Shown one piece after another: positions 19,899 through 54,086 of a DNA stretch of 64,000 bases. Source of the stretch: Naegleria gruberi (lineage: Eukaryota); NCBI GenBank assembly GCA_000004985.1, contig GG738892.1; one strand, given 5' to 3'. The notes below the pieces were generated by a model. That model was not told where the DNA came from. It saw only the letters and a program-made list of their open reading frames with translations, and did not search any database. The position numbers were made by a program, and so were the translations under genes. How positions within the stretch are numbered: the first letter of the stretch is position 1; the number at the start of each line of letters is the position of its first letter.

Positions 19899-20381
19899 AT
19901 GCTTCGTTCCAAAATCACTTCCGTTTGCTCATCACGACAATTTATTAATTCCTTCGGCAAATCCTCATTATTTCCATCATTAAACACAAAATTACATAAT
20001 TTCCATTCCTTACAAAGTAACCGAAAATCAAACTCATCCGATATTGATGCAAAATCCATCATTAAATCTATTAAAGTCCCAGAAATGGGTAATGGTATTA
20101 GATCCGCAACCATTTCCCGATGGAAGAAACATCCAGGTGATGAATGTGATGGTTCTGATGTGTTGGCTGAATTGGAGATGAAGAATTCTGATATGAAATT
20201 ATTGCTCGAGTTGAGACCACCTGTTAAGGGACAAGTGAGGGAACATTTGAAGAATGTTGGAGATGAGGTGATGGTTGGAGAGAAGATTGCAACCATGGAA
20301 ACGTTGGATATTGATGAGGAAAGTAGATTGAGACATGTTGTGGAGGATGCTATCATTGATGTTCATGTTTTACCTAAATAG
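19899..20381 (+). CDS. Small mitochondrial-targeted protein consisting of a single lipoyl-attachment (biotin/lipoyl hybrid-barrel) domain.
   Basis: The N-terminal ~60 aa is S/R/K-rich and lacks acidic residues (MLRSKITSVCSSRQFINSFGKSSLF...), i.e. presequence-like. It is followed by IKVPEMGNGIRSATISRWKKHPGDECDGSDVLAELEMKNSDMKLLLEL..VGDEVMVGEKIA, which matches the lipoyl-domain consensus including the lipoyl-lysine position (ExxK). There is no catalytic or E3-binding domain after it. The stop is at 20379..20381 with no donor site. Confidence 0.5.
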   Translation: MLRSKITSVCSSRQFINSFGKSSLFPSLNTKLHNFHSLQSNRKSNSSDIDAKSIIKSIKVPEMGNGIRSATISRWKKHPGDECDGSDVLAELEMKNSDMKLLLELRPPVKGQVREHLKNVGDEVMVGEKIATMETLDIDEESRLRHVVEDAIIDVHVLPK

Positions 20382-20467: not shown

Positions 20468-21768
20468 TTAAGGAAGTGAAATTGTTGAAATTGGAGTGTT
20501 TGGTTCACTATCGATGGATATTGAAGAATTGGAAAGATTATGGAAATTATCTTGATTGGAGGCAGTTAGGAATGTTCCAAATTGTTGGTGATTACTAGTA
20601 TTGGTAGTGTTTGGTGACATTTCAATTCCTTTTGAGTTTTCCAAAGCTCTATTTGTTTTGTGTTCAAAGTTGACTGCCTTAATGGCATTCTTGACCATCC
20701 TTTTCATTTCACTGATAGGTCCAAAGAGGATACACAAACCAACAATGAAAATCCATGTAGCAATTGCCTTTCCAATTAACGAAACCACTTGAAAGTAAAC
20801 TGAAACATTCGAAACTTCTCCTATAAACGAAATCAATTCCATCAAACACAAGAAAACAGCAATCAAAGCAACTAAACTCACAATGATAACAATTCTAATA
20901 ATTGCCTTCTTACTAGTTTCCTTCAAATAATGTCCAGAATTTTCACTACTTTGTTTCAAATGTCTGATTAGCTGAACGGTTGTCCAAATTACATAACCCA
21001 ATGAAGAAAGAACACATAGAATGAAGATAGTTGTTGTCAATGAATAGAAAAATATAAGAGCTGGTTTGATGGTTGTGTCATTGGTTGCTTGTTGAACTTT
21101 TGTTATTTGGTCAACTAGCACAGTAATGATATAACCTATAATCACCACTGAAAGAATGATAGGAATGGTAATTATCGATCCAAGAAGAATCTTGAATACC
21201 TTTTCTGAAATGTATTTCAACTTCCTGCTCGTTTGCAAACTATTTCACATTTAAAACAATTCTAATCTTAAACTAAAACTTACAATATATAACAAACAAA
21301 CAAGAACTGCACCACCAACCACCAATCATTCACAGCCCATCCACAATAAATCAATGCATTAATCACTCTCACATGGAGTGGTTTCTCAGAACTGACAAAA
21401 GTCGCCACAGGAAAAGCCAACATGTTTAAGATTCGTAAAGCAAATAAAATGATCAAGATTACAACACTAGGTAACATGATAGAGAAGAGGATGATCTTGT
21501 TTTTGGAGAAGGGCCTTTTGGGTTTGATAGGAGTTGAAGAAGGATTGTTTTCGTCTGGTTTCGTTTTTTGGCTTGCTTTTGATTTGTGTTTAAAGCAGAT
21601 TAGGAGGGTAAGAATGAATGGAAGGAGAATAATGAAGGATAGCATTTGAATGAAGGTTACCGAAACCTCGCCAATGATTTGCGCAGTGGACACTGTTTCG
21701 TTTAAAGAAGAAGAATTAGATGAAACAGCTTGTATTATGAACAAATCAACTAATGACGACATTTTCAA
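20468..21768 (-). CDS. Multi-pass membrane protein of unknown function. complement(join(20468..21239,21284..21768)).
   Basis: Two ORFs are joined by a 44-bp GTAAGT..AAATAG intron (21240..21283) in compatible phase. There are at least 6 hydrophobic helices (FIILLPFILTLLICF, IILFSIMLPSVVILIILFAL, IITIPIILSVVIIGYIITVLV, IFILCVLSSLGYVIW, IIVSLVALIAVFLCLMELI, IATWIFIVGLCILF). The C-terminal tail is S/N/T-rich. Confidence 0.55.
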
Positions 21769-22271: not shown

Positions 22272-23996
22272 TCATGAAGATTTATCCAACTCTCCCAATC
22301 TTGCACTTTCTTCTACTAATTCTCGTGTGAGTTGAGTCCAATCTGCTTCAAAATGATATTCTTGAATACTTGTTGCTTCTTGAATGGTTAGGAAGAGAAT
22401 TTCTTCATAAGAAATTGAGACATCCAGCTTAAACTCTCTCAAAACAGTTTTATCACTGGTTTCATTCAAATTAGGAATACAAAATTCTCCCAATAATAAA
22501 TTATTCCTCGGTATGTATCTTTCACCCATGTACAATTTGAAATGGAATTGGTTTGTGGATGGGTTGACATTCTTTTGTACAGTGAACGATTTCTTGTAAG
22601 GCAGGTAAGTATTCCTATGGGCCAGAATCATCATTTTCCTATTATGTTCAATTCCAATGCTAAGTGGCAACACAACGTGTGCCCAAAAAGTATTTCTAAC
22701 TCTGAACTGTTCACAAAATACGGTAGCTCCTCTTGCCTTAATGGTTTTTGGAGGAATGTTGTCGTATAAAACGAATTGATTATTTCCTTTGAAGAATTCT
22801 CGGATTGTAGATGAAAATTTTGAGATTTGACAACAAGCACCACATAAAATCAAATCACTGACAGAATGAATTGATTTTGAATTCCTTTCCAATAGAGAGT
22901 TCAGTAGGGATGTAATTTTTGAGACTACTGGTGTTACTAATTGTTCAAATTTTGGTTTGCTGAGGACTAAAGAGAAATCAACTCCATCCATCAAGGAATC
23001 TACCTGAATCAAAACATTGAGTAGATTTCTTTCGCCGTATAATTCTTCTTTGGCAAGTTTACATACCTCATAAAGTCTGGCTCTTGCCTTTGGATTTGTA
23101 AGCTGCTTTTTTGTTTTCTTTTTAAATTCTTGCACACAATAGTTAACCAATAGCTCATCAATAGAATTTCCTGAAATGGTACTATCTGAAGTGTATTCAA
23201 TCAACTCGAAAATACCTTCTTCCAAATTGTATAGTGTTGCTATTGTACATGTAGATCCACAATTCAAAATTAACAAATCTCTGTCCGTCTTGTTATTGAT
23301 GCTATATGCCAATCCAGCAGCTATCACATCTTTAATTGCTCGTTCCACTTTAAATCCTGCCATTTCAAAAGCACTTTTTAAAAACGTTAATTGTAAATCA
23401 TTGTAAAATACTGGAACTGTAATAATATTTCGTTCGAAAAGATCTTTTCCCATATCCTTTCCCAATATTTCCACTCTCAATTTATCAAATAATTTCACCA
23501 TTAGGGTAAATAGTGGAATCTCAATTGAATAATTAGTTTTCGTATCAGTAATCTTAATCTGAATCAACTTGTTTAAATTCTCTACATCGTCTTTCGATTT
23601 GATATGTACATTCTCAGTAAATATTTGACTTATTAATCTCTTCTCTCCCTCAATTTCATCATTTTCCAAAATCTTGATTTCATTCAATTGATCTTGATCC
23701 GATCCCAAACAATCAATTAATCTCTTAATATTTACAATTGTAAAATCAATATATTCCTCATCACTCTCTTCAAAACCAAACAATTCAAATCGTTTAATTT
23801 TACTCTCCATCATACAAACAATAACCGTATCAACATTAGAACCCAATCTAATAACATTCTCTCCCAAACAACCCGAGCAAATATCACTCGAAACCTTGAT
23901 GAAGGAATTTCCGAAATCAATTCCGAACCAGTACCGATCCTCTCGTACAAGATTTGGCAAATAATCAGTTGCTATTATCATTTTTTTCAATTTCAA
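22272..23996 (-). CDS. Divergent Hsp70-family (actin-like ATPase fold) protein with degenerate nucleotide-binding motifs.
   Basis: Single 574-aa ORF. It aligns to Hsp70 landmarks by eye: GIDFGNSFIKVS (compare GIDLGTTNS), AIKDVIAAGLAYS (compare IINEPTAAALAY), LLILNCGSTCTIATL (compare VLIFDLGGGTFDVS), LVNYCVQEFKKKTKKQL (compare LVNHFVQEFKRK), LILCGACCQISKF...FFKG (compare VLVGGSTRIPKV...FF.GK). The phosphate-1 and phosphate-2 glycines are replaced. Confidence 0.6.
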   Translation of the reverse strand: MKLKKMIIATDYLPNLVREDRYWFGIDFGNSFIKVSSDICSGCLGENVIRLGSNVDTVIVCMMESKIKRFELFGFEESDEEYIDFTIVNIKRLIDCLGSDQDQLNEIKILENDEIEGEKRLISQIFTENVHIKSKDDVENLNKLIQIKITDTKTNYSIEIPLFTLMVKLFDKLRVEILGKDMGKDLFERNIITVPVFYNDLQLTFLKSAFEMAGFKVERAIKDVIAAGLAYSINNKTDRDLLILNCGSTCTIATLYNLEEGIFELIEYTSDSTISGNSIDELLVNYCVQEFKKKTKKQLTNPKARARLYEVCKLAKEELYGERNLLNVLIQVDSLMDGVDFSLVLSKPKFEQLVTPVVSKITSLLNSLLERNSKSIHSVSDLILCGACCQISKFSSTIREFFKGNNQFVLYDNIPPKTIKARGATVFCEQFRVRNTFWAHVVLPLSIGIEHNRKMMILAHRNTYLPYKKSFTVQKNVNPSTNQFHFKLYMGERYIPRNNLLLGEFCIPNLNETSDKTVLREFKLDVSISYEEILFLTIQEATSIQEYHFEADWTQLTRELVEESARLGELDKSS

Positions 23997-24406: not shown

Positions 24407-25181
24407 TTACAAGAGATTGCAACCCTTCTTCTTTCCACTCTTGGTATCCTTTCCGACTGGAGTTGAAGGCTTTGACTTTCTAACTTCACGAACGAGGGCC
24501 ATGAAAGCTTCATCAACGTTCAATCTTTGCTTGGCTGAGGTTTCCAAACTTGGGATGCTCAATTGCTTGGCAAATTGTTTACCTTCATCAGCACTGATGA
24601 CTCTTTCAGATTCCAAATCACACTTGTTACCAACAAGAACCATTGGGACTTTATCAGCATCCTTGACTCTCAAGATTTGTTCATAGAAATCATTGATTTC
24701 TTCAAAGGTCTTTCTGTCAATGACAGAGTAAACCAACAAGAAACCATCACCAGTTCTCATGTATTGATCTCTCAAAGCCTTGTATTCTATATAATAATTT
24801 ATGTATCATCATCATAATAATATTGTTGTTGCCGGTTAATAACAAAAAGTAAATATTTTCAAAAACAAACCTTCTTGACCGGCAGTATCCAAGATTTCCA
24901 AGAAACATGGCTTGTCATCAACTTTAGCGTGCTTTCTATAAGAATCTTCAATAGTTGGATCGTATTCTTCAACGAAGATGTTTTGAATGAATTGGACAGT
25001 CAAGGCACTTTTACCGACACCACCACCACCGACTAGAGAGTTGTATTAAATAATTATTCAAAGAAAGTTAGAAGAAAGCATATACGAAAGGTTGAAAGTT
25101 AACGTTAGAGAAGGTGAATATTTTGTTTTACATACCAACGGCGAGCTTGTATTCTTCCATACCAGAATTGTTTGAAGCCAT
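24407..25181 (-). CDS. Ras-subfamily small GTPase with a C-terminal CAAX box. complement(join(24407..24786,24871..25032,25136..25181)).
   Basis: Exon 1 is [15 protein letters not shown]. Exon 2 is [54 protein letters not shown]. Exon 3 is [22 protein letters not shown]...LVGNKCDL...ETSAK...KKKGCNLL. The introns are GTATGTAAAAC..CTCTAG and GTTTGT..ATATAG in correct phase. All five G-boxes are intact. Confidence 0.85.
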
Positions 25182-25732: not shown

Positions 25733-27718
25733 TTATTTTGTTACTGAGGATGATTGTTGTAGGTAAACCCTAACTTCTCTCTTGAGTACTTTAGCTAATT
25801 GAGAGCGAGGTAAATCACCATCAAATATGTGAATAGAATTTGGTAAATCTTCCTGTGGGACCTTCTTCTCTGTGAGGAATAACATTAATTCTTCACATAG
25901 GGCCTTCTTCTTTTCCTCATCATTAACAATATCAGCCTTTCTTCCATGACGCAACGATATGGCCATAACAGCCTTCTCTTCACTCACTTGAACGTAGGCT
26001 GTTTCCTTGATGGCTGGATGATCATGAATAATTTCCTCGACAAGTCTTGGGTAGGTAGTATGAGTAGTGGAAGATGTTGTCTTGGTAGTATCATCATTAT
26101 CATCATGATTGTTATTTGTAGAGATTGAAGATGCAGAACTATTAATCCTTCTCTCAATAACATCAGCCCTTCTTCCCAAGACGTACAATCGACCCTCTCT
26201 CAAGTAGCCAACATCTCCAATGTGAAGCCATCCTCCTTTGAGTGTCTTTTCCGTCATTTCCTGATTCTTAATGTATCCCTTGAATTGTGTAGGACTCTTG
26301 ACGAGAATGTTACCTATTGGAGGAGGTTTGCTCTTGTCTGTCCACTCCAAAACCTTATCATCATCATCAGCAATAACAACTTGAACCTGAGGAACAACAA
26401 TACCAACAGAACTCAACACTGAGCGAGGAGCCCATCTGTATTTTCCATTCTCGTCTATAGTATTGCTCTCTAAAAGGTGATTTGTTGTGGAAAGCATGGA
26501 AACTGGTGGAAGAACTTCAGCAGAGCCATATCCTTGTTGAAGAATTGGACCAAAACGAGCAAGGGCCTCTTCTAATTTTCCTACCGGCATTAATTCAGTT
26601 CCATAAATAATATTGGTGAGGGAAGAAAGATCGACCTTGTCAATATTTGGTGAATCCAACAAATCTATCAACAAGCTAGGAGTTGTGAATAGTCTAGTAA
26701 CTTTGTACTTGGGAATCAACTTTAAAAATTCTTCAGCTGTAAATTCAGATGGAATAAGGAGAGCTCCTCCCGATATCAGAGTAGGGATAACCATGCCACT
26801 TCCAGCACCATTAGTAGGAATACCAACAAGAGAAACTTCATTAATTTTCTCAGGATCAATGCTTGGATCTAATTTTGACTTGTCAATTGGAGGAGAGGAA
26901 AAACTCACTGGTCCAAGCTCTACATTTCTAATAGTAAGTGTAAGACTGAGGATGAATAGACCATGATTAGCACTAAGACATTTAGGAACTGAAGTAGTAC
27001 CACTAGTAAAGCCCAAACTGTACCAATCATCAGGATTGATCACATTGGATGAATATTGATAAAAGTCAGATTTTGATTTTTTGGAATTTGTAACAATATT
27101 GTTAAACTCTTCATCAATAACATCAAATGATAACAAACTAATCTGTGGAACTATTTCTTTGAGTAGTTGAGAAGATTCTTCACCAGCACGTCTATCATAT
27201 AGGAAACAATAATTCCTGTCCTCTCTAATTTCAACCTTATCCATCACATGCAAGAGTAATTCCTTGCCTGCATTTCTAGGAATATTCACTAGAATAATTC
27301 CACTCTCAAAGCATGCTAACATGGCCAGGATGTACTCTGAACCTTCTGGCAGCAAGGTAAATAGATAATCACCCTTTCTCAATGATGCTTTATTTGTGAG
27401 AACTGTCAATAAGGTCAACATTCTTTCCTTCAGTTCCGAATAGGTGAGTGGTTTTATCGAAGGAGAAATGAGAGCATACTTATCGTTGGCATATCGTTTG
27501 TATGCAAATCGAAACACATCCCTCGGTATTGAAAACCTACTCATCAGCAACAAGAGGAACTGTTTTCTGAACCATGTTAAAATCGACATTTTTTTGTACT
27601 GGATCTGGATGCAAACGTATTCGACCATTCGCTTAATTGATTGATTGGAAACAAATCTCATGTTCCAGTACATGAGCAAGAATTCGATTTGGTATGCATT
27701 TTCAATACATTTTAACAT
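25733..27718 (-). CDS. AMP-dependent synthetase/ligase (acyl-CoA-synthetase-like adenylate-forming enzyme) with a low-complexity insertion.
   Basis: Single 661-aa ORF. It has the AMP-binding motif GFTSGTTSVPKC (compare TSGTTGxPKG), the motif GYGSAE and the hinge WLHIGDVGYL. An N/D/T-rich insert (SISTNNNHDDNDDTTKTTSSTT) precedes the C-terminal subdomain. The start could be an internal Met (e.g. MSILTWF). Confidence 0.7.
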   Translation of the reverse strand: MLKCIENAYQIEFLLMYWNMRFVSNQSIKRMVEYVCIQIQYKKMSILTWFRKQFLLLLMSRFSIPRDVFRFAYKRYANDKYALISPSIKPLTYSELKERMLTLLTVLTNKASLRKGDYLFTLLPEGSEYILAMLACFESGIILVNIPRNAGKELLLHVMDKVEIREDRNYCFLYDRRAGEESSQLLKEIVPQISLLSFDVIDEEFNNIVTNSKKSKSDFYQYSSNVINPDDWYSLGFTSGTTSVPKCLSANHGLFILSLTLTIRNVELGPVSFSSPPIDKSKLDPSIDPEKINEVSLVGIPTNGAGSGMVIPTLISGGALLIPSEFTAEEFLKLIPKYKVTRLFTTPSLLIDLLDSPNIDKVDLSSLTNIIYGTELMPVGKLEEALARFGPILQQGYGSAEVLPPVSMLSTTNHLLESNTIDENGKYRWAPRSVLSSVGIVVPQVQVVIADDDDKVLEWTDKSKPPPIGNILVKSPTQFKGYIKNQEMTEKTLKGGWLHIGDVGYLREGRLYVLGRRADVIERRINSSASSISTNNNHDDNDDTTKTTSSTTHTTYPRLVEEIIHDHPAIKETAYVQVSEEKAVMAISLRHGRKADIVNDEEKKKALCEELMLFLTEKKVPQEDLPNSIHIFDGDLPRSQLAKVLKREVRVYLQQSSSVTK

Positions 27719-52538: not shown

Positions 52539-54086
52539 ATGAAAGGTGCATACCACAGTGTGTTGTTGAAGCATTCAGGTTCATCCTTCCACATGATTGT
52601 TGACACTGAAAAAATGATGTTGACACTTCCTGCTAAATATCCAATAATTAGTTTTTGTGTTTGTTTGGTGATTTTGTTGGCGAGTTGTGGATTGAGTGTT
52701 TGGAAATTAAAAATTGATTCGGATCCTTTTAAACTTTTAACACATTCACATTCGAATGCCAAGTTGAAACGAGACGAAATGAATTTATTGTTTCCTAAAT
52801 ATAATATATGAGAGCAGTGAGCATATTTAAGGGATCCTCTAGANNNNNNNNNNNNNNNNNNNNNNNNNNNNNNNNNNNNNNNNNNNNNNNNNNNNNNNNN
52901 NNNNNNNNNNNNNNNNNNNNNNNNNNNNNNNNNNNNNNNNNNNNNNNNNNNNNNNNNNNNNNNNNNNNNNNNNNNNNNNNNNNNNNNNNNNNNNNNNNNN
53001 NNNNNNNNNNNNNNNNNNNNNNNNNNNNNNNNNNNNNNNNNNNNNNNNNNNNNNNNNNNNNNNNNNNNNNNNNNNNNNNNNNNNNNNNNNNNNNNNNNNN
53101 NNNNNNNNNNNNNNNNNNNNNNNNNNNNNNNNNNNNNNNNNNNNNNNNNNNNNNNNNNNNNNNNNNNNNNNNNNNNNNNNNNNNNNNNNNNNNNNNNNNN
53201 NNNNNNNNNNNNNNNNNNNNNNNNNNNNNNNNNNNNNNNNNNNNNNNNNNNNNNNNNNNNNNNNNNNNNNNNNNNNNNNNNNNNNNNNNNNNNNNNNNNN
53301 NNNNNNNNNNNNNNNNNNNNNNNNNNNNNNNNNNNNNNNNNNNNNNNNNNNNNNNNNNNNNNNNNNNNNNNNNNNNNNNNNNNNNNNNNNNNNNNNNNNN
53401 NNNNNNNNNNNNNNNNNNNNNNNNNNNNNNNNNNNNNNNNNNNNNNNNNNNNNNNNNNNNNNNNNNNNNNNNNNNNNNNNNNNNNNNNNNNNNNNNNNNN
53501 NNNNNNNNNNNNNNNNNNNNNNNNNNNNNNNNNNNNNNNNNNNNNNNNNNNNNNNNNNNNNNNNNNNNNNNNNNNNNNNNNNNNNNNNNNNNNNNNNNNN
53601 NNNNNNNNNNNNNNNNNNNNNNNNNNNNNNNNNNNNNNNNNNNNNNNNNNNNNNNNNNNNNNNNNNNNNNNNNNNNNNNNNNNNNNNNNNNNNNNNNNNN
53701 NNNNNNNNNNNNNNNNNNNNNNNNNNNNNNNNNNNNNNNNNNNNNNNNNNNNNNNNNNNNNNNNNNNNNNNNNNNNNNNNNNNNNNNNNNNNNNNNNNNN
53801 NNNNNNNNNNNNNNNNNNNNNNNNNNNNNNNNNNNNNNNNNNNNNNNNNNNNNNNNNNNNNNNNNNNNNNNNNNACCTCTTGACTATTCCTTTATTGATT
53901 TGTTCCTTGTCAACTGTGGTCAGCATTCTGCCTCTTGCATTTCATGATATCAAGATTGTGAAAAAGTACTTTTTCGATATTATTATTTTAGGACAAGGTA
54001 TTTTATTGTTTAACGTATTGGTAATATTCCCTGCAATATTATCATTAATTGAAAAGTTGAGATCTAGGAAAATTCCAGCTCTTTAA
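52539..54086 (+). CDS. Patched/Dispatched/RND-superfamily-like multi-pass transporter, copy 1. The N-terminal part and the C-terminal part are separated by a 1032-N gap at 52843..53874.
   Basis: The N-terminus has TM1 (ISFCVCLVILLASCGLSVW) followed by KLKIDSDPFKLLTHSHSNAKLKRDEMNLLFPKY, resembling the post-TM1 IETDPxxLW loop-start of RND/SSD proteins. After the gap, 53877..54086 encodes LLTIPLLICSLSTVVSILPLAFHDIKIVKKYFFDIIILGQGILLFNVLVIFPAILSLIEKLRSRK, identical to the end of copy 2. Confidence 0.45.

Follow-up and report, generated by a model that had tools for sequence, protein, structure and literature searches.

What becomes of an Hsp70-type protein when most of the residues around its nucleotide have been exchanged, and can it still act as an ATP-driven chaperone? 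This question is raised by the gene NAEGRDRAFT_71748, which is encoded in a stretch of 64,000 nucleotides (referred to as the window) of nuclear DNA of Naegleria gruberi with ~34% G+C (NCBI GenBank assembly GCA_000004985.1, contig GG738892.1). It is a real gene for a very divergent protein of the Hsp70 family, in which a degenerate nucleotide-binding domain (NBD) is followed by a complete beta-sandwich part of the substrate-binding domain (SBDbeta) and by little else. We favour, with moderate confidence, the reading that the protein is a lineage-specific, non-cycling Hsp70, that is, a hydrolysis-impaired, uncoupled and lidless form, which would bind clients or partners weakly via its SBDbeta.

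Gene Model and Family Membership

The program-made list of open reading frames (ORFs) contains an entry at 22272..23996 on the minus strand, which encodes 574 aa and opens at a TTG codon, the bacterial code having been used for ORF calling. An in-frame stop codon lies directly upstream of this TTG, and the first ATG is found at 23981 in an A-rich context. Because the DNA is eukaryotic, the TTG start was discounted and the coding sequence (CDS) set to 22272..23981; the 574 aa given in a preliminary description, which had been made from the DNA letters alone, are therefore to be replaced by 569 aa. Translation from the ATG yields a protein that matches XP_002673288.1 with 100% identity along its entire length. 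This entry is labelled at NCBI as "predicted protein [Naegleria gruberi]" and listed in UniProt as D2VRY5, and from the full-length identity it follows that the gene has a single exon. It is thus already present in the databases, under automatic annotation only.

Membership in the Hsp70 family is indicated by a match to the Pfam family HSP70 (PF00012) of 169.4 bits (E = 1.3e-49), compared to a curated cut-off of 20.6 bits. In a phmmer search against all PDB chains, the first places are taken by cytosolic Hsp70s, with Chlamydomonas HSP70A and bovine Hsc70 at E~1e-38; Ssb, BiP, and DnaK come next. The AlphaFold2 (AF2) model, with a mean predicted local distance difference test (pLDDT) score of 74.4, is confident for lobe II of the NBD and for the SBD but of low quality over residues 1-130; used as query in Foldseek, it matches the two-domain structures of Hsc70, BiP, and DnaK at E~1e-33. 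The protein thus has both domains expected for the Hsp70 superfamily, an NBD with two lobes and an actin-like fold and, behind it, an SBD built as a beta sandwich. The best matches in PDB, Pfam, and Foldseek are all Hsp70s and not other actin-fold families, which bears out the Hsp70 fold proposed in the preliminary description. The layout of the protein was derived from an L-INS-i alignment and the AF2 model; the reference proteins HSPA8, BiP, Sse1, Ssz1, and HSPA14 had been confirmed by exact sequence look-up under those names. The gene and the two parts of its NBD are placed as follows:

22272..23981, minus strand: complete single-exon CDS of NAEGRDRAFT_71748 / XP_002673288.1, 569 aa plus stop codon (from the ORF, the identity to the NCBI protein, and Pfam)
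23577..23981, minus strand: N-terminal extension (residues 1-16) and divergent lobe I of the NBD, subdomains IA/IB (residues 17-135), from the alignment and the AF2 model
22698..23576, minus strand: NBD core, consisting of the C-terminal part of IA, IIA, and IIB (residues 136-428), well conserved; the Pfam, phmmer, and BLAST alignments begin here

The two parts of the NBD differ in their conservation. Residues 136-428 show pLDDT values of mostly 75-95, and values below 50 occur at residues 1-13, 34-40, 47-83, and 96-115. Compared to Hsc70, lobe I contains two additional stretches of ~18 and ~30 aa, and the near-universal TPS motif is missing from it. Over residues 1-135, the identity to HSPA8 amounts to 20%, compared to 29-35% for Ssz1, Sse1, and HSPA14 in that region. 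When an N-terminal query of 227 aa was compared with the solved Hsp70s, it aligned via residues ~114-226, and residues 1-113 gave no significant match.

The Nucleotide-Binding Site

The ATP site was scored as identity to HSPA8 at 25 residues of Hsc70, which are those in contact with the nucleotide, Mg, and phosphates in the ATPase structures. The values obtained are 25 for BiP, 21 for DnaK, 16 for HSPA14, 14 for Sse1, and 12 for Ssz1, followed by 11 for NAEGRDRAFT_70803, a 564-aa paralogue encoded on another scaffold of N. gruberi (61-63% identical), and 8 for NAEGRDRAFT_71748 itself. The contacts kept in the latter are D10, G12, K71, G201, G230, K271, G338, and I343 (Hsc70 numbering). The changed ones are T13N, T14S, Y15F, E175D, D199N, G202S, G203T, T204C, and D206I, together with E231N, E268K, R272E, S275Y, G339A, S340C, R342Q, and D366K, and with 8/25 contacts the complete nucleotide, Mg, and catalytic residue set of a canonical Hsp70 is not present. 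The elements to which these residues belong include the following:

23901..23924, minus strand: phosphate-1 loop GIDFGNSF (Hsc70 GIDLGTTY), with D10 and G12 kept and T13N, T14S, and Y15F changed
23724..23726, minus strand: K86, the equivalent of the catalytic Lys (Hsc70 K71 / DnaK K70), within NIKRLID; an invariant column in the 26-sequence alignment
23241..23270, minus strand: phosphate-2 loop ILNCGSTCTI (Hsc70 IFDLGGGTFD), with G201 kept and D199N, G202S, G203T, T204C, and D206I changed
22818..22847, minus strand: adenosine motif LCGACCQISK (Hsc70 LVGGSTRIPK), with G338 kept and G339A, S340C, and R342Q changed

The substituted phosphate-1 and phosphate-2 motifs, which had been the starting point of the preliminary description, are both confirmed by translation and alignment, and both had been placed correctly (GIDFGNSF at 23901-23924 by translation, the altered phosphate-2 motif at 23241-23270). 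The phosphate-1 loop has kept its length. A deletion of two residues, as seen there in a first MAFFT alignment, was rejected, since the L-INS-i alignment and an AF2 hairpin (strands at residues 17-22 and 27-32), which lies in the register of Hsc70 at this loop, support an ungapped arrangement. The changes in the adenosine motif, taken together with E268K, R272E, S275Y, and D366K, add up to an adenosine pocket that is, as judged from the residues, remodelled.

A comparison of the two paralogues allows some ordering of these events. The phosphate-1 loop is the same in both copies, and E268K, R272E, G339A, R342Q, and D366K are likewise common to both, so that the changes in the adenosine pocket and the phosphate-1 loop predate the duplication. 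The positions 175, 199, 202, 204, and 206 of the catalytic centre differ between the copies: the phosphate-2 loop of the paralogue reads LDCGATKTM, has kept D199, and differs from that of NAEGRDRAFT_71748 at 202, 204, and 206.

Linker, Substrate-Binding Domain, and Missing Lid

The C-terminal third of the protein is built from three elements:

22665..22697, minus strand: interdomain linker RNTFWAHVVLP (Hsc70 DLLLLDVTP), residues 429-439; hydrophobic, with the Leu run and the Asp lost
22341..22664, minus strand: SBDbeta, an eight-stranded beta sandwich, residues 440-547
22272..22340, minus strand: C-terminal helix, residues 548-569, equivalent to lid helix A only, ending with LDKSS and the stop codon

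The linker, reading NTFWAHVV where canonical Hsp70s have (D/V)LLLLDV, is also the least conserved segment between the two paralogues, with identity at 3/11 positions. Residues involved in allostery and in the interface to J-proteins are altered as well: R155L, N174K, and T177I are found in NAEGRDRAFT_71748, and the states in the pair are R155L/N, N174K/R, and T177I/V, so that neither the canonical linker nor R155, N174, and T177 are retained.

The SBDbeta has kept hydrophobic residues at the aligned positions of the pocket (I, V, F, F). Polar or basic residues occupy the arch and the L1,2 loop (HNRK in NAEGRDRAFT_71748, HERK in the paralogue), which suggests an altered substrate specificity. 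Behind the last strand of the SBDbeta the protein continues for only ~22 residues, containing a helix at residues 553-568 of the AF2 model; lid helices B-E, the G-rich tail, and the EEVD motif are missing, such that the full lid of canonical cytosolic Hsp70s (SBDalpha, helices A-E) with its EEVD terminus does not exist in this protein. The absence of lid and EEVD had been recognized before and is confirmed by the AF2 model and the alignment. The collinearity with Hsp70 described at the same time holds for the NBD and reaches further than had been assumed, taking in all of the SBDbeta and the first helix of the lid instead of only the start of the SBD.

Relationship to Other Hsp70 Subfamilies

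In BLASTP comparisons, NAEGRDRAFT_71748 scores 144 bits with HSPA8 (30% identity), 132 with BiP, 111-117 with DnaK, 103 with HSPA14, 81 with Ssz1, and 78 with Sse1, and the nearest type among the 149 best representatives is HSPA8 for 132, BiP for 15, and DnaK for two. Shared derived residues were sought in 39 columns which are conserved in canonical Hsp70s and in which both paralogues have a derived residue in common. HSPA14 shares 4/39 of these, Ssz1 0/39, and Sse1 2/39, with a background of 7/53 between HSPA14 and Sse1. In neighbour-joining (NJ) trees from raw BLOSUM distances, the pair joins the long-branch atypical sequences in 100% of the replicates, without a consistent partner; after gamma correction, the grouping with the atypicals is recovered in 46, 22, and 7% at alpha values of 2, 1, and 0.6, respectively, and the usual sister is found among the cytosolic/ER sequences. 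The NJ grouping with Ssz1, HSPA14, and Sse1 was therefore taken as long-branch attraction. Taken together, the sequences point to a eukaryotic cytosolic or ER-type Hsp70 as the most likely origin, with the exact position in the tree not fixed by NJ, and do not support membership of the pair in the Ssz1/HSPA14 or Hsp110 groups. The HSPA14/Hsp110-like affiliation considered in the preliminary description is not upheld, given that BLASTP favours HSPA8, that the derived residues are at background, and that the long lid of Hsp110 is absent.

Two other origins were examined and rejected. A bacterial origin by horizontal gene transfer does not agree with the scores of DnaK, HscA, and HscC, which are below those of eukaryotic cytosolic Hsp70, and a link to giant viruses via the metagenomic protein P0048 was dropped because P0048 is itself 46% identical to HSPA8 and represents an ordinary Hsc70-type protein. 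P0048 (589 aa) is the best full-length BLAST partner, with 27% identity over 560 aa. It is encoded on two metagenomic contigs (L004, 6001-7770, and L005, 1085-2854) that are full of ORFans and also carry genes for NADAR, ubiquitin, and HD-domain proteins, and that look like parts of a giant virus (Nucleocytoviricota).

Distribution and Evidence for Constraint

An exhaustive HMMER search with a two-sequence profile from both paralogues against 1.84 billion representative proteins returned the cluster of NAEGRDRAFT_71748 itself at 1181 bits. The next score, 221 bits, belongs to a gene model of a plant Hsc70 that is matched in two stretches, and almost all matches start at profile position ~180 or beyond. 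A search of sequences clustered at 90% identity gave the paralogue alone above 30% identity, and nothing between 61 and 30%. The adjacent acyl-CoA ligase gene, used as a positive control, retrieved a 51% identical orthologue of N. lovaniensis from the same collection, which renders the missing Hsp70-like orthologue meaningful, at least for annotated proteomes. No close relative was present in the JGI metagenomes, which yielded only generic Hsp70s of 22-25% identity, and no relative was found in IMG/VR, leaving a viral origin unsupported. From these searches, NAEGRDRAFT_71748 and its paralogue appear to be restricted to the N. gruberi lineage, with no orthologue detectable elsewhere. A genomics paper on N. 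fowleri does not discuss Hsp70.

The two copies share 58% identity in lobe I, 64% in the NBD core, 68% in the SBDbeta, 77% in the C-terminal helix, and 27% in the linker. Their similarity amounts to 81-86% in all domains but the linker (83% in the lobe I region). Both ORFs are uninterrupted and have matching ends (MI... and ...LDKSS), and blocks of identity are found even in the unique N-terminal region. The persistence of intact ORFs with matching ends in both copies after divergence to 61% identity argues for purifying selection. In addition, a contig from an ENA metagenome (L001) contains a near-identical allele with four synonymous and two non-synonymous differences, whose CDS is more conserved than the flanks; this pattern agrees with selection, the counts being too small for proof.

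Comparison With Known Hsp70 Systems

The canonical Hsp70s of the HSPA8/Hsc70 (Ssa) type are the nearest sequence neighbours and show the same order of NBD, linker, and SBDbeta as well as conserved D10, K71, G201, K271, G338, P147, K159, and R171. NAEGRDRAFT_71748 differs from them by its 8/25 contacts, by the rebuilt lobe I, and by lacking the Leu-rich linker, helices B-E, the G-rich tail, and EEVD. In architecture, it resembles yeast Ssz1 and human HSPA14 (Hsp70L1), which are also lidless and of similar size, have a complete SBDbeta, and show degeneration of the catalytic centre. Both kinds of protein are probably non-cycling and bind partners or weak clients, as described for Ssz1 (PMC7083937) and as would apply to NAEGRDRAFT_71748. 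Ssz1/HSPA14 pair stably with the N terminus of zuotin/MPP11 in a heterodimer (PMC7083937). However, it is no closer to Ssz1/HSPA14 in sequence than to canonical Hsp70s, keeps lid helix A, and contains the insertions in lobe I. Ribosome-associated complex (RAC) subunits are moreover pan-eukaryotic, whereas the type described here occurs in N. gruberi only, in two copies and without an orthologue.

The Hsp110/Sse1 proteins are likewise Hsp70-derived paralogues with substituted glycine loops including T13N, and Sse1 also has E175D; yet Hsp110 keeps E268, R342, and D366, and possesses the extended SBD and long lid essential for nucleotide exchange, none of which is found in NAEGRDRAFT_71748. Plant Hsp70T proteins (T1/T2) and an engineered lidless DnaK share the C-terminal truncation with loss of EEVD and/or the lid (PMC10687569; PMC7083937), but the plant T1 proteins and lidless DnaK have a canonical NBD instead of a degenerate one with unique insertions. 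HSPA13 (STCH) consists of an NBD only, unlike NAEGRDRAFT_71748 with its full eight-stranded SBDbeta.

The atypical Hsp70s, i.e., Hsp110, Ssz1/HSPA14, HSPA12, and HSPA13, illustrate how the scaffold is repurposed once hydrolysis, allostery, or the lid are given up, and several of these Hsp70-derived paralogues are mechanistically untested (PMC13580251). The Naegleria pair would add an independent, or at least unassignable, case, in which the NBD is more degenerate than in any reference atypical and the SBDbeta is conserved, and it could help to define the minimal parts of an Hsp70 that are useful without an ATPase cycle. Otherwise, it represents one uncharacterised, lineage-restricted protist paralogue of modest general interest, which opens no long-standing question.

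Functional Interpretation

As a non-cycling Hsp70, the protein would have arisen from a eukaryotic ancestor of cytosolic or ER type, followed by duplication in the N. gruberi lineage. Hydrolysis is expected to be weak or absent because of E175D, D199N, T204C, and D206I, and the coupling of NBD to SBD was probably lost along with the conserved linker and the equivalents of R155, N174, and T177. Without a lid, clients should not be trapped and the canonical ATP-driven clamp cycle would not be possible, so that the protein may be held in one conformational state. The SBDbeta and the C-terminal helix are proposed as the acting parts since they are the best-conserved ones; they may bind hydrophobic segments with low affinity and fast exchange, or may be bound constitutively to a partner protein. 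The protein could then serve as a holdase, an adaptor, or a regulator of the canonical Hsp70/J-protein system, in a mode like that of Ssz1/HSPA14 but in a different family. Precedents for such behaviour are known: lidless DnaK shows 10-100x faster on and off rates for peptides and a lower affinity. Ssz1, which is lidless and whose NBD is atypical, binds but does not hydrolyse ATP and is unable to go through the Hsp70 cycle; its SBDbeta accommodates a segment from the partner Zuo1 and, transiently, also nascent chains (PMC7083937).

Several observations weigh against this interpretation. NAEGRDRAFT_71748 has retained D10, K71, G201, K271, and G338, and the paralogue retains the full catalytic set D10/K71/E175/D199. 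Ssz1, whose pocket is degenerate to a similar degree, does bind ATP-Mg, which makes it conceivable that nucleotide is bound and even slowly hydrolysed. The NBD of NAEGRDRAFT_71748 may accordingly bind ATP, for which the Ssz1 precedent speaks and against which stand the lost adenine-stacking arginines and two reversed charges at the ribose site. The AF2 model is too poor over residues 1-130 to show the pocket geometry, so that conclusions on it are drawn from the sequence, and the case for purifying selection is made from ORF integrity, conservative substitutions, and only six polymorphic codons. A literature search yielded no paper naming either gene of the pair, and the supplements of a copper proteomics paper on N. 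gruberi gave no match to the gene. A lineage-specific pseudo-chaperone had been offered as one option in the preliminary description; its lineage restriction stands, and the term pseudo-chaperone is plausible but unproven, as D10 and K71 are kept and the paralogue has the complete D10/K71/E175/D199 set.

The retention of D10, G12, K71, G201, K271, and G338, and of the catalytic set in the paralogue, would also fit a working ATP-driven Hsp70, i.e., a specialised fast-exchange chaperone with tolerated substitutions and a dedicated J-protein. Such a function is also favoured by the conserved SBDbeta with its hydrophobic pocket and by the presence of R171 (equivalent to DnaK R167 at the J-domain interface), P147, D152, and K159. 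It is nevertheless doubtful: E175D, D199N, T204C, and D206I all fall within the catalytic centre of this copy, both arginines that stack on the adenine are gone (R272E and R342Q), and the charges at the ribose site are flipped by E268K and D366K. Allostery and J stimulation require the linker as well as R155, N174, and T177, all of which have been lost and vary even between the paralogues, and there is no lid for trapping clients. If the NBD, with its rebuilt lobe I and with the charge swaps E268K, R272E, and D366K as well as R342Q and G339A fixed in both copies, has stopped sensing ATP/ADP and has instead acquired another ligand or partner, the pair may constitute an unrecognised Hsp70 subfamily with the SBDbeta and the C-terminal helix as output, which we regard as rather unlikely; if true, the Hsp70 scaffold would have been repurposed for a non-chaperone, Naegleria-specific role. 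The architectural likeness to Ssz1/HSPA14 could also mean that the gene is the Naegleria orthologue of these proteins, acting as the non-hydrolysing RAC subunit on zuotin/MPP11 and helping to bring a canonical Hsp70 to nascent chains. This assignment is quite unlikely, as orthologues are missing from sister species and N. gruberi has two copies.

A functionless relic, i.e., an Hsp70 duplicate that drifts under relaxed selection with its ORF still undisrupted, would explain why only 42% of the columns that are conserved to at least 85% in canonical Hsp70s are retained, why the positions of the catalytic centre differ between the paralogues, and why no orthologues were detected among the 1.84 billion proteins. 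It would also be in line with the missing match in the proteomics supplements and with the lack of an element resembling a heat shock element (HSE) within 420 bp upstream of the gene, which is weak evidence as Naegleria promoters are uncharacterised. However, copies at 61% identity both keep uninterrupted ORFs of ~565 aa with the same ends and 81-86% domain similarity, where neutral drift of that extent in an AT-rich genome should have produced many stops and frameshifts, and the environmental allele has four synonymous to two non-synonymous differences in a CDS more conserved than its flanks, which renders a relic very unlikely. A nucleotide exchange factor of the Hsp110/Grp170 type for canonical Hsp70, as might be read from the substituted glycine loops, appears extremely improbable: Sse1 gives the lowest BLAST score of all references (78 bits) and has 2/39 derived residues in common with the pair, the protein is 569 aa long instead of >690 aa, and it contains neither the extended/acidic insertion in SBDbeta nor the SBDalpha lid, both of which are used by Hsp110 to embrace the NBD of Hsp70.

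Neighbouring Genes and Other Features of the Window

As expected in a eukaryote, the neighbouring genes hold no functional hint for the Hsp70-like gene. Judged from reading their translations, they comprise an exon of a Ras/Rap-like small GTPase (24407-24775, minus strand), an ORF resembling lipoyl/biotinyl-attachment domains (19899-20381, plus strand), and two ORFs for multi-pass membrane proteins (20468-21238 and 21280-21768, both minus strand). The gene at 25733-27718 (minus strand) codes for an AMP-binding acyl-CoA ligase (PF00501), for which the NCBI model gives 618 aa, the first ~43 aa of the ORF being probably non-coding. After the 51% identical orthologue of N. lovaniensis, its next matches show 41-48% identity, and the named ones among them are bacterial (Flavobacteriaceae, Anaerolineales); one possibility is that the gene was acquired horizontally in the Naegleria lineage.

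Over the whole window, the HSE-like pattern GAAnnTTCnnGAA (with at most one mismatch) occurs 66 times, compared to 39.7 +/- 6.7 in shuffled sequences, an excess which is probably an effect of coding or composition. Two blocks that look AT-rich, at ~53000-53900 and ~59300-61000, are runs of N (assembly gaps, G+C = 0.000) and not DNA of low G+C content. Near-perfect (TTTGGG)n arrays of ~90 and ~49 copies are located at 62605-63138 and 63708-64000, with the G-rich strand running 5' to 3' towards the end of the window. The region resembles the end of a chromosome bearing the N. gruberi telomeric repeat, and the two arrays, which are separated by a gap of 50 N and ~520 bp of unique sequence, possibly represent two telomere-bearing contigs that were joined in the scaffold.

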